Of a stretch of 64,000 nt of DNA, positions 54,248 through 63,968 are shown piece by piece. The first letter of the stretch is position 1; each line of letters starts with the position of its first letter. Made by a program: the position numbers and the translations under genes. The stretch is from NCBI GenBank assembly GCA_903858475.1, contig CAIOIZ010000049.1, positions 1,238 to 65,237 on the forward strand, given 5' to 3'. The stretch is from an uncultured Bacteroidota bacterium (lineage in GTDB: Bacteria; Bacteroidota; Bacteroidia; Chitinophagales; Chitinophagaceae). Under the pieces are notes generated by a model. That model saw nothing but the letters and a program-made list of their open reading frames with translations, searched no databases and had not been told where the DNA came from.

Positions 54248-56755
54248 ATGACCAAAAAATTAACTGGAATGCTGCTTGCATTTCTATTCTTACACTCCTA
54301 TGCCTTTTCACAAATTCCGATAAAGCAGTTAAATGCGAAAAAAATTAACGGCAGCATCAAAATAGATGGAATATTAGATGAAGAGGATTGGAAAAATGCG
54401 CCGGTGGCCAGTCAGTTCACCACCTTAAAACCAGCACCCTTCATCCCCGAAAATCCTGATAATGCCAGTTCGGTTTATTTTCTTTATGATGACAACGGAC
54501 TTTATATTGGCGGTTACATGAAAGAAAAAACCAAAGACAGTATTTCAACTGAGCTCGTTGGAAGAGATGGCTTTGGCAACAATGATTTTGTAGGGGTTAT
54601 ATTTGATACATATCATGATAAACTCAACGCGTTTGAATATTTTGTAACTCCCTTGGGAGAACAGATGGATTCAAAATTTGCTTCTAATATGATTGGGAAT
54701 TCTGAAGACTTTAGCTGGAATAGTGTATGGCAAAGCGCTTCTAAAATTAATAATGATGGTTGGAGTTTTGAAATGTTCTTGCCCTATTCGGCCATTCGGT
54801 TTGGAAAAAAACAAGTACAAGATTGGGGATTGAATATTGTACGTCGTAGACAAAAAAGCGGCGAACAACTATTCTGGCAATCTATTGATCCCACCAAAAA
54901 TGGACTTTTAACACAGGAAGGGGTTTTAACTGGGTTAGCAAATATTAAACCGCCGATGCGTTTGCAGTTGTCTCCTTATTTTTCTGCCTATGCTAATCAC
55001 TATCCATATAATCAATCGGATATTAAAAACACCAATACACTTGTTAATGGTGGAATGGATGTGAAATATGGAATTAATCAAGCGTTTACTTTGGATATGA
55101 CCCTGATACCCGATTTTGGTCAGGTGGTTAGTGATAACAGGGTTTTGAATCTTTCTCCATTTGAAGTGAAGTTCAACGAAAACCGTTCTTTCTTTACTGA
55201 GGGTACCGAATTATTTGGAAAGGGCGACTTGTTTTATAGTCGACGCATTGGCAATTCTGCTCCTATTCATTATTATGATGCTTATTTTCAAACTAACGGC
55301 AATGAGCAGGTGATAAAAAATCCATCTGTAAGTAAGTTAATCAATGCAACTAAGATAAGTGGCCGTACACAAAGTGGGCTTGGTATAGGGGTATTGAATG
55401 CCATTACTAAACCACAGCATGCCATTATTGAAGGCAACAATAAAGAGCAAAGATTATTTGAAACAGATCCCTTAACCAATTATAATGTTTTAGTGCTCAA
55501 TCAATCGTTGAAACACAATAGCAGCATCTCCTTTGTAAATACCAATGTATTAAGAAGTGGCAACGATTATGATGCGAATGTAAGTGCCTTGCTTTTCGAT
55601 TTCAATGACAAAAAAAACAAGTGGAATCTTGGTGGTGGCATCAATAGAAGTGCATTGTATAACAAAGGGGGTAAAAATATTTTCGGCTATGCCCATACAC
55701 TTTATTTTAGTAAGACTAGTGGGCGCTTCAATTTTTATGCATGGCAGGAAATGAGTAATGATTCGTACGACAAGAGTGACATGGGTTATTTTACCAATAA
55801 TAATACAATGGATCAAGGGTTGTGGATGGGCTATAATTGGAACAAGCCAAGAGGTTGGTACAATCAATTGCGCATTAATACCGATTGGTGGTATAGTCGA
55901 TTGGTAACACCTATTGATATTGTAAAAGGTAGAGATCGAATGTATCAAGGAGCGGGGGTTAATTTTAGTCTAAATGCACAAACGAAAAAACTATGGTCAA
56001 TAGGTGCGAACTTAAGTGTAAAATTAGCCCATAATGATTTTTATGAACCAAGAGTAGTTGGTAGGGTTTTTCAAAATAAGGCCAGTATTGACTTCAGGGC
56101 CTTTTGGCAGAGTAATGAAGCTAAAAAACTTTCTTGGGCTGGTAATTTTATAGCGGGAACGGGGGCAGTCTTTAATCGCACCAGCATTGGATTAGGGCTT
56201 GGTGGTAAACTTCGGTTTTCAAGTAAATTCTCCATTGATCATAATGTTAATGTGGAGCATCATTCCAATCAAGCAGGTTGGGCGGATACCAAGTATTCAG
56301 GATCGGGGGCAGTGTATGATACAATAATATTTTCGAGAAGAAATTTAATGACCACCGAAAATATTTTCAATATGAAGTATAGTTTTAATAATAAAATGGG
56401 ACTTACTTTACGGGTACGTCATTATTGGAGCAAAGTAACACCCCAACAGTTTTATGAATTGAATAAGTATGGAAATCTTACAACCCCAACAACTCCCTTT
56501 GCTGGCAATGTAAATCAAAACTATAATTTTTTCAGTGCTGATATGCTCTATACCTGGCAGTTTGCACAGGGTAGTTTTATTAATATTGTTTGGAAGGATA
56601 TGGCAGAAACTTTTGATAGGGATATTGCACCAGGTTATTTCAAGAATTTGCGCAATACAAGTGCTGGCCCTCAAAACAATAGCTTGTCCATAAGGGTTAT
56701 CTATTTTATAGATTATCTGTCAGTGAAAAATAAATGGAAAAAAAAGGCTGTTTAG
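54248..56755 (+). CDS. DUF5916-like outer-membrane protein with N-terminal CBM9-like domain
   Basis: Signal peptide, IKIDGILDE..W, PDFGQV..D, LNLSPFE..F.ENR.FF.EG. Confidence 0.82.
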   Translation: MTKKLTGMLLAFLFLHSYAFSQIPIKQLNAKKINGSIKIDGILDEEDWKNAPVASQFTTLKPAPFIPENPDNASSVYFLYDDNGLYIGGYMKEKTKDSISTELVGRDGFGNNDFVGVIFDTYHDKLNAFEYFVTPLGEQMDSKFASNMIGNSEDFSWNSVWQSASKINNDGWSFEMFLPYSAIRFGKKQVQDWGLNIVRRRQKSGEQLFWQSIDPTKNGLLTQEGVLTGLANIKPPMRLQLSPYFSAYANHYPYNQSDIKNTNTLVNGGMDVKYGINQAFTLDMTLIPDFGQVVSDNRVLNLSPFEVKFNENRSFFTEGTELFGKGDLFYSRRIGNSAPIHYYDAYFQTNGNEQVIKNPSVSKLINATKISGRTQSGLGIGVLNAITKPQHAIIEGNNKEQRLFETDPLTNYNVLVLNQSLKHNSSISFVNTNVLRSGNDYDANVSALLFDFNDKKNKWNLGGGINRSALYNKGGKNIFGYAHTLYFSKTSGRFNFYAWQEMSNDSYDKSDMGYFTNNNTMDQGLWMGYNWNKPRGWYNQLRINTDWWYSRLVTPIDIVKGRDRMYQGAGVNFSLNAQTKKLWSIGANLSVKLAHNDFYEPRVVGRVFQNKASIDFRAFWQSNEAKKLSWAGNFIAGTGAVFNRTSIGLGLGGKLRFSSKFSIDHNVNVEHHSNQAGWADTKYSGSGAVYDTIIFSRRNLMTTENIFNMKYSFNNKMGLTLRVRHYWSKVTPQQFYELNKYGNLTTPTTPFAGNVNQNYNFFSADMLYTWQFAQGSFINIVWKDMAETFDRDIAPGYFKNLRNTSAGPQNNSLSIRVIYFIDYLSVKNKWKKKAV

Positions 56756-56771
56756 TCAGTTCGTATTTAAT

Positions 56772-56808
56772 AAGCCCTCCTTATCTACATAAGGAGGGCT
56801 TGCTTTTT
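56772..56808 (+). terminator. Intrinsic terminator
   Basis: 13-bp perfect stem AAGCCCTCCTTAT/ATAAGGAGGGCTT, followed by GCTTTTT. Confidence 0.85.
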
Positions 56809-56871: not shown

Positions 56872-57708
56872 ATGAAAAAATTATCAACCCTTGTTTTATT
56901 AATTGCTGTTGCAACGATTTTCAACGCCTGTAAGAAATCAGGTGGTTCTTCTGGTGGTACAACTCCTCCTGTAGCTACTCCCAAGTACACGAAAAAAGTG
57001 TTAGTAGAAGATGTAACTGGTACCTGGTGTGGCTGGTGTCCATTAATGGCTTATGCCCTTGAGCAAAAAGCAATTTCTACACCCAATCTTGTATCGGTTG
57101 GTTTACATGATAAGGCGGGTACTTCCGATATCTATCATTCTCCCTATAGCACTAGCATCAGAAGTAATTTTGGTATTAATGCCTTTCCTACAGCCTTGGT
57201 CAATCGCAAATCACAAGCGGACGATTCAAATGTGGGTTCTTTTATTGATGCCAATCTTGGTGGTAAAACAACGGCCGGTTTAAAAATAGAATCTACACTT
57301 GCTGCCAATAATATTTCAGTAAAAGTCTCTGTTGGGTTTAGTGATAATTATTCCACTTCATCAATGAAATTGGTGTGTTTTCTGGTAGAAGATCAGCTGG
57401 TGTCTCCGCAGGCCAATTATTTAAGTGGCAATGGTTCGTTTGCAGGCCATCCCTATTATTCAAAACCTAATCCCATTCCCAACTTTGTACACCACAATGT
57501 ATTGAGAGAAGTAGGCAATGGAGCTCCTTTGGGTGAGCCTATACCTGCATCACAAACAGGGATAGATGCTATATATACCAACACTTATACCATAAATACC
57601 ACAGGATATGTTGCCGCTAATTTATATGTGGTGGCATTTGTATTGAAAGGTACAGAATGTGTTAATGTGCAAATCGCTCCAGCGGGTGTTACGAAAGCAT
57701 TTGATTAA
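56872..57708 (+). CDS. Omp28-related outer-membrane lipoprotein (thioredoxin-like domain plus C-terminal domain)
   Basis: Lipobox FNAC, KVLVEDVTGTWCGWCP, AFPT cis-Pro, HHNVLR. Confidence 0.82.
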   Translation: MKKLSTLVLLIAVATIFNACKKSGGSSGGTTPPVATPKYTKKVLVEDVTGTWCGWCPLMAYALEQKAISTPNLVSVGLHDKAGTSDIYHSPYSTSIRSNFGINAFPTALVNRKSQADDSNVGSFIDANLGGKTTAGLKIESTLAANNISVKVSVGFSDNYSTSSMKLVCFLVEDQLVSPQANYLSGNGSFAGHPYYSKPNPIPNFVHHNVLREVGNGAPLGEPIPASQTGIDAIYTNTYTINTTGYVAANLYVVAFVLKGTECVNVQIAPAGVTKAFD

Positions 57709-57729
57709 TAAATTTGAAATTAATAATAG

Positions 57730-57761
57730 CAAAGGGTCATGCAGGAATGCATGGCCCTTTG
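57730..57761. terminator. Bidirectional terminator between convergent genes
   Basis: CAAAGGGTCATGCA-GGAA-TGCATGGCCCTTTG. Confidence 0.75.
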
Positions 57762-57791
57762 TATATAAAATAGTTACTGCAACTGCGGCAG

Positions 57792-59411
57792 TTAAAAATT
57801 ATAGGCTAAGGTTCCTGTAAATCCTAAATAAGTTGGAACAAATCGACAAACACCTCCTACACATACCAGCCCGCCTCTTTGTTTGGCATAGCCAAGCGAT
57901 AATCGAAGCGAGTTGTGGTTATAAGCGCTTCCTACATTGAAGTAGTTTATTTTTTTGCTTTGATAATTACTCAGGTTAGAAGCATAAAAACTAAGGCCAT
58001 TGCTGAAACTATATTCAGCCAATAGGGCATACCAGTTTTTTTCATCATCCTTGGTAAAGAGGTGTTGGATTTCGGTACGAAGTGATTGTTCTTCTTTTAT
58101 TTTAAATAGAAAATCTGCTATTAGAATATTAGCGTCTACACTTCCATAAGGCCCTCCTTGTAAAGCAGCTTTATTGTAAAATAAATGTTGATAGGAAAAG
58201 CTTCCCTTTACTTTGGCTGTCCATCTTTTTTCGAAGCTTAGGTTGATATCACGGAAATATTTTTCCTTGCCGAATGACAATGCTTTACTTGAAAATCCTT
58301 GGTTGCCGGAAAGGCGAGTGGTATCAAGTGCATTATAAAGAGCAGCATTTAAAATAAATTTTGCTCCGTAGGCGCCGCCAATTGGACTATTCTTGGCAAA
58401 ATGATAATTGATATCCAATTGCCCTCCGATTTCTTGTAACCATTGCGTATTGTGTGGATATATATTAGATACCAAGTAGGAATGTTGTTTGGTCAATGCG
58501 GGTAAATAATTTAGAGAGGTAACCGATTCGGTTGATACATAATTTGATTTAAAATCCATATTCTCTAATCTTCTCAGGCTAATATTAATGCCCCATCCTT
58601 TGGAGCTGCTATAAGATTGATTGAGCAGAAAGGCAGCCCCTTTTTTATATATGTATTTGTTTTGAAAATCTGGTTCAATAGATTTATTAACGTATTCAGC
58701 ACTGGCGCTATAATTATTTCTACTAAAATTAATTCTAGCAGCCAGGGCGGTAATGTGATCGGGAAAATTAGGCAGGGGTACTGTTACTTCTTGTTTTTTG
58801 TAAACATAGGAGCCGCCGATGTTTAAATGGGTTTGGTTATTGTCTTTTTCAATAGCTATAATATCAAATTCTGCATCTGCACCAGCAATGAGGCGGGCAG
58901 GAGAAAGGTCCATAAAATTGCGCTGTCTTCCTGCAAATGCTTTAAAGCGTATAGCCTTTACCGGTATTAATTTAAGGTGTCCCCCAAGAATGGCATTGTC
59001 AATGCCCAATTGCCTTTCTTCATAGGCGCGAAATACGATACCTGCACCAAATTGATCATAAAAAGTACCTGCCGTGATTTCGGCATATTTAGATTTATAC
59101 CTGATAAATCCATGTACCAATTGATTGCCATCATAGCCTGTTGGATAGCCTTGCAAAACTGGGTTGTATCCTTCCAATTGAATACCTGCTTCCAGGTGTT
59201 GGTATTGATAATTCAGATTGAGGTAAGTATTGGAAGCAAATCTTTTTTCAGGCAGGAGTATTCCTGATTTTTTATTCTCAAAATAATATTGATTATTAGA
59301 TTCAATGCCTCCCGAGAAATGATGGAGGGCATACCAAGGATTTTTATTTTGTGCAGCAGCATACTGCTGTAGGAATAGCAAACTTAGTGGCAGGATTATT
59401 TTTTTTAGCAT
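57792..59411 (-). CDS. DUF6029-like outer-membrane beta-barrel
   Basis: Signal peptide, GTFYDQFGAG..FRAYE.R.LG.DN, C-terminal GGLVCVGGVCRFVP...YNF. Confidence 0.75.
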   Translation of the reverse strand: MLKKIILPLSLLFLQQYAAAQNKNPWYALHHFSGGIESNNQYYFENKKSGILLPEKRFASNTYLNLNYQYQHLEAGIQLEGYNPVLQGYPTGYDGNQLVHGFIRYKSKYAEITAGTFYDQFGAGIVFRAYEERQLGIDNAILGGHLKLIPVKAIRFKAFAGRQRNFMDLSPARLIAGADAEFDIIAIEKDNNQTHLNIGGSYVYKKQEVTVPLPNFPDHITALAARINFSRNNYSASAEYVNKSIEPDFQNKYIYKKGAAFLLNQSYSSSKGWGINISLRRLENMDFKSNYVSTESVTSLNYLPALTKQHSYLVSNIYPHNTQWLQEIGGQLDINYHFAKNSPIGGAYGAKFILNAALYNALDTTRLSGNQGFSSKALSFGKEKYFRDINLSFEKRWTAKVKGSFSYQHLFYNKAALQGGPYGSVDANILIADFLFKIKEEQSLRTEIQHLFTKDDEKNWYALLAEYSFSNGLSFYASNLSNYQSKKINYFNVGSAYNHNSLRLSLGYAKQRGGLVCVGGVCRFVPTYLGFTGTLAYNF

Positions 59412-59417
59412 ATAGAA

Positions 59418-59912
59418 TTAGCGAATGGCTTGTTTTTTCAAGAATTTTTTTAATTCATTTTCACTCCCCGGCGTATAACCTGAATGTCGTTTTACAATGT
59501 CTCCTTTTTTATTAATGATAATGGTATACGGAACAGTATTGATATTCAGCGAACGCTTGAAGTCCTGGTTAACATCGAGATAGGTAGTAAAAGGCCAATC
59601 TCTTCCATTTAAAATTCCTTTTACGCCATTGAGTGTACGGCTATCATCAATGGCTATTGCGATGATGCTGCTATGCGTAGTCTTTTTCCAGTTCTCATAA
59701 TCTTCTGCCAATGCATCTAGTTCCTGCATACAGGGTTTGCACCAGGTGGCCCAAAAACTGATGACCACATATTGGCTACTGTCGATTAATTGATGGCTGC
59801 TGATTTCTTGCCCTTCCAGCGTTTTAAGAGTGGCCTTGGGTAAATAACTTTGTGTCAAAGCACAATGTGTAAGTAATAAGCTACAGATGGTTACGGCGAT
59901 TATTTTTTTCAT
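59418..59912 (-). CDS. TlpA-family exported thiol-disulfide oxidoreductase
   Basis: Signal peptide, SFWATWCKPC, TVPYT. Confidence 0.9.
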   Translation of the reverse strand: MKKIIAVTICSLLLTHCALTQSYLPKATLKTLEGQEISSHQLIDSSQYVVISFWATWCKPCMQELDALAEDYENWKKTTHSSIIAIAIDDSRTLNGVKGILNGRDWPFTTYLDVNQDFKRSLNINTVPYTIIINKKGDIVKRHSGYTPGSENELKKFLKKQAIR

Positions 59913-60150
59913 GCGATTGAATTCAGCAATAAAAGTACTGAATAAAATAAAGCGAAAAGGAGAAGGCCAATGAATTGCCTATTATGGGATGGTCCACAAT
60001 TAAGCTGTTCAATATTCGGCCTATGCCTGCAGCTTCCATCACTTGCCACATAGTAATAGAAATTTTAAGATCTTTGGCCTACGGTAGCATGCGAATTATT
60101 ATTTTTACCATTCCCCAATCAGTAAAGATTGGCAGCAGCACAAAAAAATA

Positions 60151-60158
60151 TATCTTTG
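60151..60158 (+). promoter_or_regulatory. TATCTTTG -7 element for pyrH
   Basis: Exact TAnnTTTG 53 nt upstream of the ATG. Confidence 0.65.
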
Positions 60159-60168
60159 CAAAAATTAT

Positions 60169-60189
60169 CAAACTGCAGTCTGCAGTTTG
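60169..60189. repeat. Perfect inverted repeat CAAACTGCAG-T-CTGCAGTTTG in the pyrH leader
   Basis: 10-1-10 palindrome read directly from the sequence. Confidence 0.8.
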
Positions 60190-60211
60190 GGCAACTATCT
60201 AAAATTGCTAT

Positions 60212-61005: not shown

Positions 61006-62004
61006 TTAGAGGGTGCCCAAATAGGCTTTGATATCTGCCAATCCGGTTTTAATTGGCGTAATAGGAACCGACTGATTGGAATTACCAGTAACATTCAATC
61101 CACTATTGCTGATTTGTTTTCCAAGATAATAGTCGTTGCCTTGTTTGGATATAACAACAATGGTAATAGGTTTGCCAACAGGCACTTTACCGGAAATAAA
61201 TTTCTTAACTGTTGGTTCGCCATACATACCAACTACTGTTCTCATTTCATTAAATACCAAGTAAACGGAAGTATTAGCATTGGTAAAATGGGCGGGTAAT
61301 TCGGTTTGTATTTTAACACGATTTGCACCCGTGGTATCATAGAAATAATCACAGTTTACCCAACGAAGGTTTCTGGAGTATAATTGGTAAAACTGATTAC
61401 CGGCAATTACTTGCGATGCAGTACCAGCAGTATCAGCTGGCAGCCAATTGAATTGGTTGGGGTTGGACTCGTCTCCATAAAAAACTTTCATTAAGGGAGA
61501 TGGCTGAGGATCTGCGAATTTTACCTGTATATAGGTACTGGGTTTCAGTTGTAATTCTTCGCCATCTTTTTTTAATTTGATAAAAAAGGAACCACCGCTA
61601 ACCAATAGACGATTGTTGCTGCTGGTGGGCCTTGCCATGCGAATCATATCTCCCTTGTTTTTTAATAACAGCAGCTCAAGATATACTTTGCCGCTTACTG
61701 TTAACCCATTGGGTCTTTGACAGCAGAAGGGAGGGAAATTAATATTTAGTCCAGCTGCAGTAGCATTCACTGTGGCCAAATTAGCATTCACTTCAAAACT
61801 ATCAGTATAAGTTTCTAGCAAAAGATTGTTTTGTAATATAGTTACTGGCATACCGGCAGTAATAGTAGCTACCCAATTGGTGTCAGGTCCGCTTACTTGA
61901 CCTGGGTCAGGGATAAAAACATCCGTATCCTTTTGACAAGCAGTTAGCAATAAGCTACTGCTGATAAAAAGGAGGGGGATAATATTTTTGTAATTCATTT
62001 TCAT
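61006..62004 (-). CDS. Hypothetical lipoprotein, probably surface-exposed
   Basis: Lipobox LLTAC followed by QKDTD; beta-rich composition; WVNCDYF motif. Confidence 0.75.
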   Translation of the reverse strand: MKMNYKNIIPLLFISSSLLLTACQKDTDVFIPDPGQVSGPDTNWVATITAGMPVTILQNNLLLETYTDSFEVNANLATVNATAAGLNINFPPFCCQRPNGLTVSGKVYLELLLLKNKGDMIRMARPTSSNNRLLVSGGSFFIKLKKDGEELQLKPSTYIQVKFADPQPSPLMKVFYGDESNPNQFNWLPADTAGTASQVIAGNQFYQLYSRNLRWVNCDYFYDTTGANRVKIQTELPAHFTNANTSVYLVFNEMRTVVGMYGEPTVKKFISGKVPVGKPITIVVISKQGNDYYLGKQISNSGLNVTGNSNQSVPITPIKTGLADIKAYLGTL

Positions 62005-62028
62005 TTTCTTTTCTACACTTTTTATAAA

Positions 62029-62054
62029 GATGCTTTGATAAATTATTTTGCTGC
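62029..62054 (-). promoter_or_regulatory. Candidate ECF-type promoter GCAGC-N17-CATC for the lipoprotein gene
   Basis: Spacing fits ECF promoters and an ECF gene lies nearby; short motifs, weak evidence. Confidence 0.3.
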
Positions 62055-62058
62055 CTGT

Positions 62059-63429
62059 TTATTTCAAATCAAGGCGTAAGCCCAACTTGATTCCGGCGGT
62101 ATTGTACTTTTGTTTAAGTGTTAAATTGTCTTTGTTCATAGAGGAGAGGTTGTGTCTGTAATAGGGTTCTGCTAGCAAGTGTAATTTGTCGGTTATTTTA
62201 TAATAAACAGAAACGCCTCCAGTAAACCCAATGCCGATATTCGTTTTAAATCCATACGGAGAAGCACTGTTTTTGCCAGTAGTGATATTTACTGGATTGC
62301 CCGCTGCATCTAGTACATCGCCTTTTTGCCAGCTATATACATTCACTATGGCCCCTGCATTTAAATTGGCATGTAGTTTTCCATTGCCTAATTCATAACC
62401 AACGATCAATGGAATATCGAGGGTTCTGTATTTATTGTAAGTTGTTTTATATCGTGTACCCGTTACCGTATAACTGCCGGTAGTATCGCCCTGGGCATTA
62501 ATGATATAGGTTACCTGTACAATATTGCCTTGTACAAGGGTAAATTTTTCATTGATTTGGCTATAGTTAAGGCCGGTACGCAGGCTCATACCATTATTGA
62601 ATACACGTGTATAGCGAATACCGGCACTAAAGGCAGAGGAGAATTTAGTACTGGCTTTTCTGCTTTGCAAGTAAGCACTATTGACTCCGGTATCAGAGAA
62701 AGATTGGAATCCCCTGTCGGGACTGCCATAAAATTCAAGATAGGTTTTGTTGCCAGCGGCATTTTCTTCAATAGTTGGACATCCGGGTAATACTACATTG
62801 GGCATTTTTCTTTCTTGCAATCCGGCTACACGGTGATGTAGCGTAGATGGATTATTCAATTCAAGGTAAAGGCGTCCCATTGGACCAAAACCACTGAGTT
62901 TATTTTCTGTTAATTCATTTGAATCAAAATCATCACTTGTGACCCACTCACTGCCATTAGGACTGCTTGTTTTAACCCTGGTACGGGAAAAGTTTTTTCG
63001 TACTCCCGAAAATAATGATGTGGTGCCAGCCTGGTTGGAACGAGCATCAGGTAAAGGTGAAGAAATACCAACTTGATCAACAGGAGTAGCAATGCCAGCA
63101 TCATTATTTAATGGAGTGGTGTTTGCGGTTGTTTGCTTTGGTTCAGAAGGAATGTTCGTATTGTTCGAAATTGCATTTTCATGGGACGAAGCACTATCTA
63201 CTGGCAAAATGGTAGTGCTGTGAGGAGTTTGTAAGAGCAACCAAACACTGGTTCCTATGGTAAGTAAAAGCCCAGCAGCAATCATCAAATTGCGTGTATT
63301 CAAAAGGGTTATCCAAAATCCTTTGGGCCTGCGTTCTCTTTTGGCCATAATATTATCCCAGATATGCAGTGGCACATCAGGTGAATATTGATGAAATTGA
63401 TCTTTTATGTGTTGGTCAAAATTACTCAT
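62059..63429 (-). CDS. Putative anti-sigma factor: short N-terminal domain, TM helix, low-complexity linker and C-terminal outer-membrane beta-barrel
   Basis: FDQHIKDQF...P..IWDNI N-terminus, TM at about aa 48-66, S/T/N/P-rich linker, barrel strands (SLRTGLNY, YRTLDIPL..GY, AEPYYR, GIKLGLRL). Confidence 0.7.
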   Translation of the reverse strand: MSNFDQHIKDQFHQYSPDVPLHIWDNIMAKRERRPKGFWITLLNTRNLMIAAGLLLTIGTSVWLLLQTPHSTTILPVDSASSHENAISNNTNIPSEPKQTTANTTPLNNDAGIATPVDQVGISSPLPDARSNQAGTTSLFSGVRKNFSRTRVKTSSPNGSEWVTSDDFDSNELTENKLSGFGPMGRLYLELNNPSTLHHRVAGLQERKMPNVVLPGCPTIEENAAGNKTYLEFYGSPDRGFQSFSDTGVNSAYLQSRKASTKFSSAFSAGIRYTRVFNNGMSLRTGLNYSQINEKFTLVQGNIVQVTYIINAQGDTTGSYTVTGTRYKTTYNKYRTLDIPLIVGYELGNGKLHANLNAGAIVNVYSWQKGDVLDAAGNPVNITTGKNSASPYGFKTNIGIGFTGGVSVYYKITDKLHLLAEPYYRHNLSSMNKDNLTLKQKYNTAGIKLGLRLDLK

Positions 63430-63968
63430 ACCGCCACTTTTTGTAATTGCATAATTTGTTTTTGCAGCATCGCTCTTGCTTTTACCAGTTGACTGCGACT
63501 GGTACCTGGTTGAATATTCAGCATCGTTGCAATTTCTTCGTGTTGAAATCCTTCCAGTACATAGAGGTTAAAAACGAGTCGGTAGCCATCTGGTAAACTA
63601 TTGATTAAATCCAGTAGGTCTTTTTCAGAAAGCTGACTGTAGGCACTGGGTTCTAAAATAGTTTCATCCCGGTCTTTTATCTCATAGCCAACCAACTCTT
63701 TTTCATAGCGTCTCAAAGAATATTTTTTTAAGGCAGTGTTCACTACAATTTTGCGTATCCATCCTTCAAAACTACCTTCAAATTTAAACTGATGAATCTT
63801 GTCAAACACCTTAATAAAGGCATCCTGCAAGATATCTTCCGCATCAGCACTATTTCGTGCATAGCGGTTACAAACACCCAGCATGCGGCCGGCGTACCGG
63901 TTATAGACCTCCCGTTGACAGGTGGCTTCTTCCCGTATGCATCCTCTTATGAGTTCTTGTTCTGTCAA
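63426..63968 (-). CDS. ECF RNA polymerase sigma-70 factor
   Basis: AEDILQDAFIKVF, FEGWIRKIVVN, region 4 HEEIATMLNIQPGTSRSQL. TTG start. Confidence 0.93.
   Translation of the reverse strand: MTEQELIRGCIREEATCQREVYNRYAGRMLGVCNRYARNSADAEDILQDAFIKVFDKIHQFKFEGSFEGWIRKIVVNTALKKYSLRRYEKELVGYEIKDRDETILEPSAYSQLSEKDLLDLINSLPDGYRLVFNLYVLEGFQHEEIATMLNIQPGTSRSQLVKARAMLQKQIMQLQKVAV

Follow-up and report, generated by a model that had tools for sequence, protein, structure and literature searches.

A TlpA-like reductase, a DUF6029 barrel and an HBP35-like lipoprotein as a possible outer-membrane thiol-redox module of Bacteroidota

In the usual view, the reducing pathways of the bacterial envelope do not extend beyond the periplasm. 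Among the described systems closest to the locus treated here are the TlpA/ResA/CcmG (DsbE) reductases, which are fed by DsbD or CcdA and whose known partners are cytochrome c maturation or Sco/Cox proteins, and HBP35, a cell-surface protein of Porphyromonas gingivalis that, as a recombinant protein, outpaces E. coli thioredoxin in the reduction of insulin and needs C48 and C51 for this (PMC2907840). We analyzed 64,000 nucleotides of DNA from an uncultured Bacteroidota bacterium of the family Chitinophagaceae (assembly GCA_903858475.1, contig CAIOIZ010000049.1, positions 1,238 to 65,237 of the forward strand); this whole stretch is called the window. It encodes side by side a TlpA-like thiol-disulfide reductase, a DUF6029 outer-membrane beta-barrel and an HBP35-like lipoprotein. 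We favor, at about even confidence, the reading that these three genes form one dedicated outer-membrane thiol-redox module. Such a module would connect a reductase of the periplasm with a barrel in the outer membrane and with surface thioredoxins, and thiol chemistry would probably reach the outer membrane or the cell surface through it.

DUF6029 appears in the literature only in passing, as a possible Wzi-like porin (PMC9603273), and a literature search for the combined components found no description of the module. The P. gingivalis proteins PG2173, PG2174 and PG2175 are found in the literature only in proteome lists of outer-membrane vesicles. The module bears on the upkeep of HBP35-type surface thioredoxins, on the function of the Omp28 family, and on the arrival of PorA at the surface without use of a type IX secretion system (T9SS). 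It is widespread in Bacteroidota, and the three-gene form in the window genome is the simplest one to reconstitute.

Kinship of the two thioredoxin-fold proteins

The TlpA-like protein has an N-terminal signal peptide, the motif WCKPC and a VPY motif with cis-Pro128, and it scores over the Pfam cut-offs for AhpC-TSA (61 bits), Redoxin (57 bits) and Thioredoxin_8 (50 bits). It thereby resembles the TlpA/ResA/CcmG reductases in its exported thioredoxin fold, its W-C-x-P-C and cis-proline motifs and its Pfam families, and the genome also carries a DsbD-like gene, a 670-aa open reading frame (ORF) containing DsbD_TM. However, the protein falls below every curated NCBIfam cut-off (ResA 71.6 against 170, StoA 61 against 210, DsbE 39.9 against 123, and TlpA 36 against 230). 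Its nearest solved structure by sequence, the uncharacterised thioredoxin-like 2m72 (8e-33), is also far closer than the ResA structures (about 1e-12). Because of both results, its sequence relationships mark it as a separate subfamily of exported reductants. It further differs from TlpA/ResA/CcmG in its company, which regularly consists of a barrel in the outer membrane and of outer thioredoxins. A DsbD gene adjacent to the module was considered and rejected; the larger thioredoxin-domain neighbors are T9SS cargo.

The lipoprotein consists of a signal peptide, a lipobox with Cys20 (NAC followed by KKS), a Gly/Ser/Pro linker, a thioredoxin-fold domain and a C-terminal Omp28 domain (Pfam PF11551, 93.2 bits against a cut-off of 34.9). 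It stays below the NCBIfam cut-offs for lipoprot_Omp28 (72.9 against 150) and Omp28_seleno (32 against 200). An alignment of 24 sequences of class A, the partner class of the window described below, is invariant at C20, W52, C53, C56, H79, D86, cis-Pro106 and R112, and in the Omp28 domain also at Q180 and N182. In profile searches the thioredoxin part matches HBP35 (5y1a, 3.5e-12) and the C-terminal part matches Omp28 (2r2c, 2e-11). The AlphaFold2 model, with a predicted local distance difference test (pLDDT) score of 91, finds 5y1a as its best Foldseek match across both domains (TMq 0.66, E 3e-13), and thioredoxins and protein disulfide isomerase are also matched in the Foldseek and profile searches.

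HBP35 and the window lipoprotein therefore share a CxxC thioredoxin domain followed by an Omp28-like beta-sandwich. They differ in that HBP35 is T9SS cargo with a C-terminal sorting domain, whereas the window protein is a lipoprotein without one, and their identity is about 16%. Omp28 itself (PG2173, 2r2c) is likewise a lipoprotein and its domain matches the C-terminal part of the window protein, but its function is unassigned and the window protein does not reach the cut-off of the lipoprot_Omp28 subfamily. The trypsin-recruiting protein 00502 of Paraprevotella is annotated as Omp28-related (PMC9477747). As a separate observation, the Omp28 domain of the window lipoprotein contains C169 and C263 (model strands 165-173 and 262-270), which are unconserved in homologues and, judged from the model, may form a lineage-specific disulfide.

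Linkage of the three families and the barrel hairpin

A sequence-only reading of the window had pointed to three adjacent exported proteins with a cysteine pair each, to a spacing of 6 nt between the tlpA and barrel genes, and to an Omp28 gene that converges on them across a shared hairpin. It had further named co-occurrence of the three families and conservation of the barrel cysteines as checks. The layout was borne out: all three ORFs are in place with their motifs WCKPC, GGLVCVGGVCR and WCGWCP (Table 1), the gap between the tlpA stop and the barrel start measures 6 nt (59412-59417), and the lipoprotein and barrel genes are convergent with a 15-bp hairpin in the 83-nt gap between them. Both checks also came out in its favor, with the families adjacent almost without exception and the cysteines invariant throughout the barrel family.

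The linkage was followed in two samples. A scan of one genome per species gave 597 barrel relatives, of which the best 80 loci were examined; these span Chitinophagales, Flavobacteriales, Bacteroidales, Sphingobacteriales and Cytophagales. The second sample comprised 301 high-quality Bacteroidota genomes, from which 23 loci of more distant lineages were fetched, giving 103 loci altogether. In 78 of the 80 loci the gene directly upstream of the barrel, on the same strand, is TlpA-like; the median distance is about 20 nt, and of the two other loci one begins at the end of a contig. At the distant loci, TlpA with C-x-P-C is likewise directly upstream of the barrel in 23 of 23, which brings the total to 101/103. 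W-C-x-P-C is kept in nearly all 78 upstream neighbors, and a hidden Markov model (HMM) of these neighbors recognizes the window protein at 2e-66 and the next paralogue at 1e-23; the partner TlpA is a subfamily of its own. In one locus (L074:5402-5904) the tlpA gene consists of two ORFs that overlap and are in different frames, which is probably an assembly frameshift or a pseudogene rather than recoding.

The third gene is linked almost as regularly. Class-specific HMMs detect a thioredoxin/Omp28 partner in 76 of the 80 loci, and a thioredoxin-fold partner is present in 23 of the 23 distant ones, so that a CxxC partner stands beside the barrel in 99/103 overall. Unlabelled clustering of the neighboring ORFs at the 80 loci recovered three conserved families only, i.e., the barrel, TlpA and the thioredoxin/Omp28 family (163 members in 76 loci). 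Every other neighbor family occurs in at most 12 loci and represents housekeeping genes. Among the 301 genomes, 53 have a strong DUF6029 match, and the 50 genomes with Omp28 above the Pfam cut-off all fall within these 53; in the other three, the barrel has a divergent thioredoxin partner at its side. Within the window's own family, 4 genomes have both DUF6029 and Omp28 and 13 have neither. Six genomes have their Omp28 genes far away from the barrel gene, and even there the two co-occur. Collectively, this conservation argues that the trio is not a chance neighborhood and is kept together across Bacteroidota.

The partners fall into classes. Class A (TGTWCGxC), to which the window lipoprotein belongs, is transcribed divergently or convergently and often starts with C-S-K-x-E after the lipid anchor. 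Class B (FTGHxCxNC) lies immediately downstream and has a conserved C-D-K-I-E-x-P-Y start, and the third class comprises forms with a T9SS tail. T9SS cargo ends outside the outer membrane. With a sorting-domain HMM that was checked against Pfam (Por_Secre_tail) on 20 proteins, thioredoxin-fold CxxC proteins with a T9SS tail were found near the barrel in 49 of the 103 loci, and they account for 64 of the 138 proteins with such a tail there. Because of this tail, these partners act outside the outer membrane, and they provide our best argument for a link between periplasm and surface. Since partners are often extracellular, a link across the outer membrane would be biologically sensible. Two Omp28 matches with an internal TGA were rejected as recoding, the codons being ordinary stops or the match a fragment.

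In one divergent family the barrel is only DUF6029-like (about 503 aa, HMM E about 1e-9 to 1e-16) and has CTSGIC in place of CVGGVC (loci L084, L088, L089 and L106 in genomes G119, G175, G135 and G131). A TlpA with CKPC remains upstream, and downstream two Redoxin-type CPHC proteins, a lipoprotein and a T9SS-tailed protein, replace the Omp28-type partner. As the Omp28-type partner is replaced while TlpA and the cysteine hairpin stay, the constant part is the thioredoxin-fold partner and not the Omp28 domain. Comparison of the loci thus defines the constants as TlpA, a barrel with a cysteine hairpin, and a thioredoxin-fold partner predicted to be bound for the outer membrane or beyond. The CPHC partners may be oxidants or isomerases, because CPHC is a DsbA-type motif.

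A frequent fourth member, encoded in 43 of the 103 loci, is a PorA-family protein of about 240 aa with a FimH-like N-domain, an invariant C-x3/4-C and a T9SS tail (e.g., L040:3951-4673(-) and L013:9397-10143(+); profile against 6kjk, 3e-8). PorA of P. gingivalis activates the PorXY-SigP cascade, and its cysteines were reported to be unnecessary for signaling (PMC12152298). It arrives at the surface without T9SS, and the neighboring barrel is an obvious candidate route. A genome search found no PorA-family protein in the window or in the rest of its genome, and none of the 49 ORFs with a T9SS tail in this genome is of the thioredoxin type. With one copy of each of the three module genes, the genome has the minimal trio form, i.e., one lipoprotein, no secreted partner and no PorA.

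The barrel protein matches Pfam DUF6029 (PF19494) at 577 bits against a cut-off of 27, over profile positions 2-538 of 538. It is single copy in the genome, and NCBIfam holds no model that matches it. It has a signal peptide, with cleavage at about AAA/QN, and ends in Phe539 (C-terminal sequence ...QRGGLVCVGGVCRFVPTYLGFTGTLAYNF). Its AlphaFold2 model (pLDDT 91.9, predicted template modelling score 0.85) contains 24 long strands, with turns of 2-5 residues and one of 11 on one side and longer loops on the opposite side. Given that both termini are in the periplasm, the model would place the short turns in the periplasm and the long loops outside the cell or in the lumen. A Foldseek search against the PDB returned only generic barrels of 22-26 strands at TM of at most 0.47 (TonB-dependent receptors, ushers, MtrB and LptD). 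The sole long periplasmic turn in the model, residues 339-351, carries a conserved G-G-x-Y-G motif with G346 and G349 invariant, and may be a docking site for TlpA.

Three loops of the barrel are conserved, L3 (118-140), L7 (284-325) and L12 (512-527), and 15 of the 29 invariant columns in an alignment of 39 sequences lie in L3 and L12. Loops are usually the most variable parts of outer-membrane proteins, and DUF6029 shows the reverse. L12 is a mini-hairpin between the last two barrel strands, with strands 514-518 and 521-525 and a GG turn (DSSP of the model), in which C517 and C522 are directly cross-strand. Strand topology in the model suggests that this hairpin is on the extracellular or lumen side, and it may hang into the lumen. 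The window barrel has the C-terminal motif R-x-G-x-x-C-x-G-G-x-C-R, and C517 and C522 are invariant in the 39 sequences. C-x-G-G-x-C is kept in 80 of 80 related barrels, in 65 of which it is the sole cysteine pair of the mature protein, and C-x-[GNS]-G-x-C is kept in all 22 readable barrels of distant lineages. In total, C-x4-C is present in 102/102 readable homologues, a degree of conservation by which the barrel pair is judged to be more than chance.

A possible thiol route and its alternatives

In the reading we favor, TlpA would be a soluble reductant in the periplasm, of the ResA/CcmG/TlpA type, which the DsbD-like protein of the genome presumably keeps reduced, and would act on the periplasmic side of the barrel. 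That TlpA and the barrel are so tightly linked is the reason to regard the barrel as its direct partner. DUF6029, as a barrel of about 24 strands, would be the sole membrane-spanning part, with the conserved loops and the cross-strand C-x4-C hairpin as its functional core, and the HBP35-like lipoprotein would end the chain as a thioredoxin-fold oxidoreductase located at the outer membrane or the cell surface. The barrel would most likely join periplasmic reducing power to the outer thioredoxin, either by thiol-disulfide exchange via its own hairpin or by keeping the thioredoxin domain inside its lumen, where TlpA could reach it.

The sequence-only reading had proposed the first of these variants, an electron relay from TlpA through the barrel cysteines to the lipoprotein. 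The module, the invariance of the cysteine pairs and the co-occurrence of the families agree with this proposal, but the exact path is only compatible with the data and we regard it as tentative. A path through the cysteines is favored by the invariance of the pair over very large distances, by Arg523, which flanks it, and by the size of the lumen, which could admit a thioredoxin domain. Cross-strand geometry is also known to give strained, redox-labile disulfides. DUF6029 might then be an outer-membrane counterpart of DsbD, whose lumen hairpin takes electrons from TlpA and passes them to thioredoxin-fold proteins at the surface. We put this forward as a possibility that is still rather doubtful, and with the same reserve suggest as acceptors the HBP35-like lipoprotein in the window and T9SS-secreted thioredoxins and PorA-family proteins elsewhere. 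If this were true, electrons would be known for the first time to cross a bacterial outer membrane on a path of thiols, and it would explain how surface thioredoxins are recycled.

Two systems with a large barrel offer comparisons. In its logic the module resembles MtrCAB (6r2q), which combines a periplasmic electron carrier, a large barrel and a redox lipoprotein at the surface, and MtrB is among the fold matches of the barrel. However, MtrCAB uses haem wires, whereas the module is without haem motifs and would need thiol-disulfide exchange, so the likeness is one of analogy only. LptD-LptE also pairs a large barrel with a lipoprotein, LptD depends on specific disulfides, and an LptD model is among the fold matches. 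Unlike the module, with which it has no sequence relationship, LptD-LptE transports lipopolysaccharide and its disulfides join the N-terminal domain to the barrel.

Several observations weigh against the reading of a dedicated redox module or against parts of it. The physical complex, the electron transfer and its direction, the redox activity of the barrel pair and the location of the window lipoprotein are inferred. The barrel pair could be a purely structural staple, which fits the tight, cross-strand GG hairpin of the model equally well, and the model topology puts this hairpin on the far side from periplasmic TlpA. The co-occurrence of DUF6029 and Omp28 in a 2x2 Fisher test (p = 6e-54) was calculated without phylogenetic correction and ignores kinship. 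Genomes G182, G194 and G266, which belong to the genus of the window and are among the 13 family members with neither gene, are without both DUF6029 and Omp28. Because it is patchy and missing from these three genomes, the module is accessory, and its gain or loss concerns the whole unit, also between close relatives. Reading all six frames of the 80 loci with TGA as U gave noise only and no selenocysteine variant of any of the three motifs.

Surface exposure of the window lipoprotein is a further such point. Its mature start, CKKSGGSSGG, has no acidic residue after Cys20. In Capnocytophaga and Bacteroides, an acidic export signal follows the cysteine of the lipid anchor, a rule that would argue against surface export of this protein. 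However, the five SusD-like lipoproteins of the same genome, which are canonical surface proteins, also have starts of this kind (CKKS, CKKQ, CAKK, CTKK and CNKF).

A different function for the barrel would be that of a translocon, insertase or dock, in the manner of ushers, LptD-LptE or Slam, which takes its cysteine-pair neighbors to the surface. TlpA would then keep the cysteines of a client, perhaps of the barrel itself, reduced until export or assembly, and the barrel disulfide would be structural or a gate. With about 24 strands the barrel is in the size class of ushers and LptD. To our knowledge, all known TlpA/ResA/CcmG relatives keep a cysteine pair of their client reduced before maturation, and we know of no established export route for the surface lipoproteins of Bacteroidota. 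The PorA-family genes at 43 of the 103 loci, with their invariant C-x3/4-C, point in the same direction, and a translocon would fit the T9SS-independent export of PorA. However, most secreted partners have a T9SS tail and HBP35 needs T9SS, so an exit route already exists for them. Omp28-domain T9SS proteins that are encoded far from the barrel are still found only in barrel genomes, which argues for a functional dependence rather than one of export. In addition, the tightest linkage is between TlpA and the barrel and not between TlpA and a client, and a translocon accounts neither for a need of T9SS cargo for the barrel nor for the fact that no element of the family is more conserved than the pair of the barrel itself. 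We consider this explanation, the main alternative, unlikely, although it accounts for much of the same evidence.

Handling of metal or haem, with no electron relay, is improbable. In this explanation the ligands would be the cysteine pairs together with the lipoprotein's His79 and Asp86, the barrel would be a channel, and the logic would be that of TlpA to Sco to CuA. TlpA of Bradyrhizobium does reduce the thioredoxin-fold copper chaperone ScoI, and H79 and D86 are invariant next to the lipoprotein CxxC. The copper transporter OprC and other TonB-dependent receptors are among the Foldseek matches of the barrel, but these transporter matches are generic (TM about 0.4) and the barrel has neither a TonB-type plug nor a TonB box. 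The C-terminal part of HBP35 binds haemin and aids growth under haemin limitation, but its thioredoxin motif is unneeded for haemin binding (PMC2907840). Moreover, clustering at the 80 loci found no conserved metal, haem or regulator genes nearby, and one lineage replaces the partner with plain Redoxin-type CPHC proteins that have no Omp28 domain.

That DUF6029 is a Wzi-type porin for polysaccharide export, with the redox genes as unrelated neighbors, is very improbable: HHpred similarity to DUF6029 was reported for Wzi-barrel-like proteins near OPX genes (PMC9603273), but the neighborhood of the barrel at the 80 loci shows no conserved genes for OPX or polysaccharides, in essentially all loci the barrel adjoins TlpA and a thioredoxin-fold partner, and the fold search gave no specific Wzi match.

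Locus layout and neighboring genes

The coordinates of the module genes and their motifs are collected in Table 1. The tlpA and barrel genes are probably co-transcribed, as their order and spacing suggest. The hairpin between the convergent genes has a folding energy of -26 kcal/mol on the + strand (z -6.7) and -18.7 kcal/mol on the - strand (z -5.0), which no shuffled sequence equals, and it is likely a bidirectional terminator. The strict Bacteroidota -7 element TAnnTTTG is absent upstream of tlpA (minus strand, 59913-60211); relaxed matches are found 25 and 37 nt before the ATG.

Table 1. Features of the TlpA-barrel-lipoprotein locus, in window coordinates
Feature	Position	Strand	Basis and remarks
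HBP35-like lipoprotein gene	56872-57708	+	278 aa; ORF and Pfam Omp28
WCGWCP codons, active-site motif of the lipoprotein (residues 52-57)	57025-57042	+	Computed coordinates; CxxC without variation in the 24 class A homologues
15-bp hairpin in the gap where the lipoprotein and barrel genes converge	57729-57762	both	Sequence and fold energy
DUF6029 outer-membrane beta-barrel gene	57792-59411	-	539 aa; Pfam PF19494, 577 bits
C517-V-G-G-V-C522 codons, barrel cysteine pair	57846-57863	-	Computed coordinates; alignment and model
TlpA/ResA-like thiol-disulfide reductase gene	59418-59912	-	164 aa; Pfam AhpC-TSA, Redoxin, Thioredoxin_8
WCKPC codons, active-site motif of TlpA (residues 57-61)	59730-59744	-	Computed coordinates
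Intergenic region common to tlpA and divergent pyrH	59913-60211	-	Inferred; presumed to contain the promoter of the tlpA-barrel operon

Window positions 54248-56755 (+), shortly upstream of the gene for the lipoprotein, encode a DUF5916 outer-membrane protein (835 aa, 636 bits). The gene is followed by a strong 14-bp terminator hairpin (56771-56802) and has a paralogue on contig C142. We rejected it as part of the module, as it is close to the barrel in just 2 of the 80 related loci.

Window positions 61006-63968 (-) hold a gene for an extracytoplasmic function (ECF) sigma factor that overlaps a gene of 456 aa, followed by a gene for a 332-aa lipoprotein without a family match. The C-terminal part of the 456-aa protein matches OMP_b-brl_2 weakly (18.7 bits, below the cut-off), and this gene set may be a trans-envelope signaling unit.

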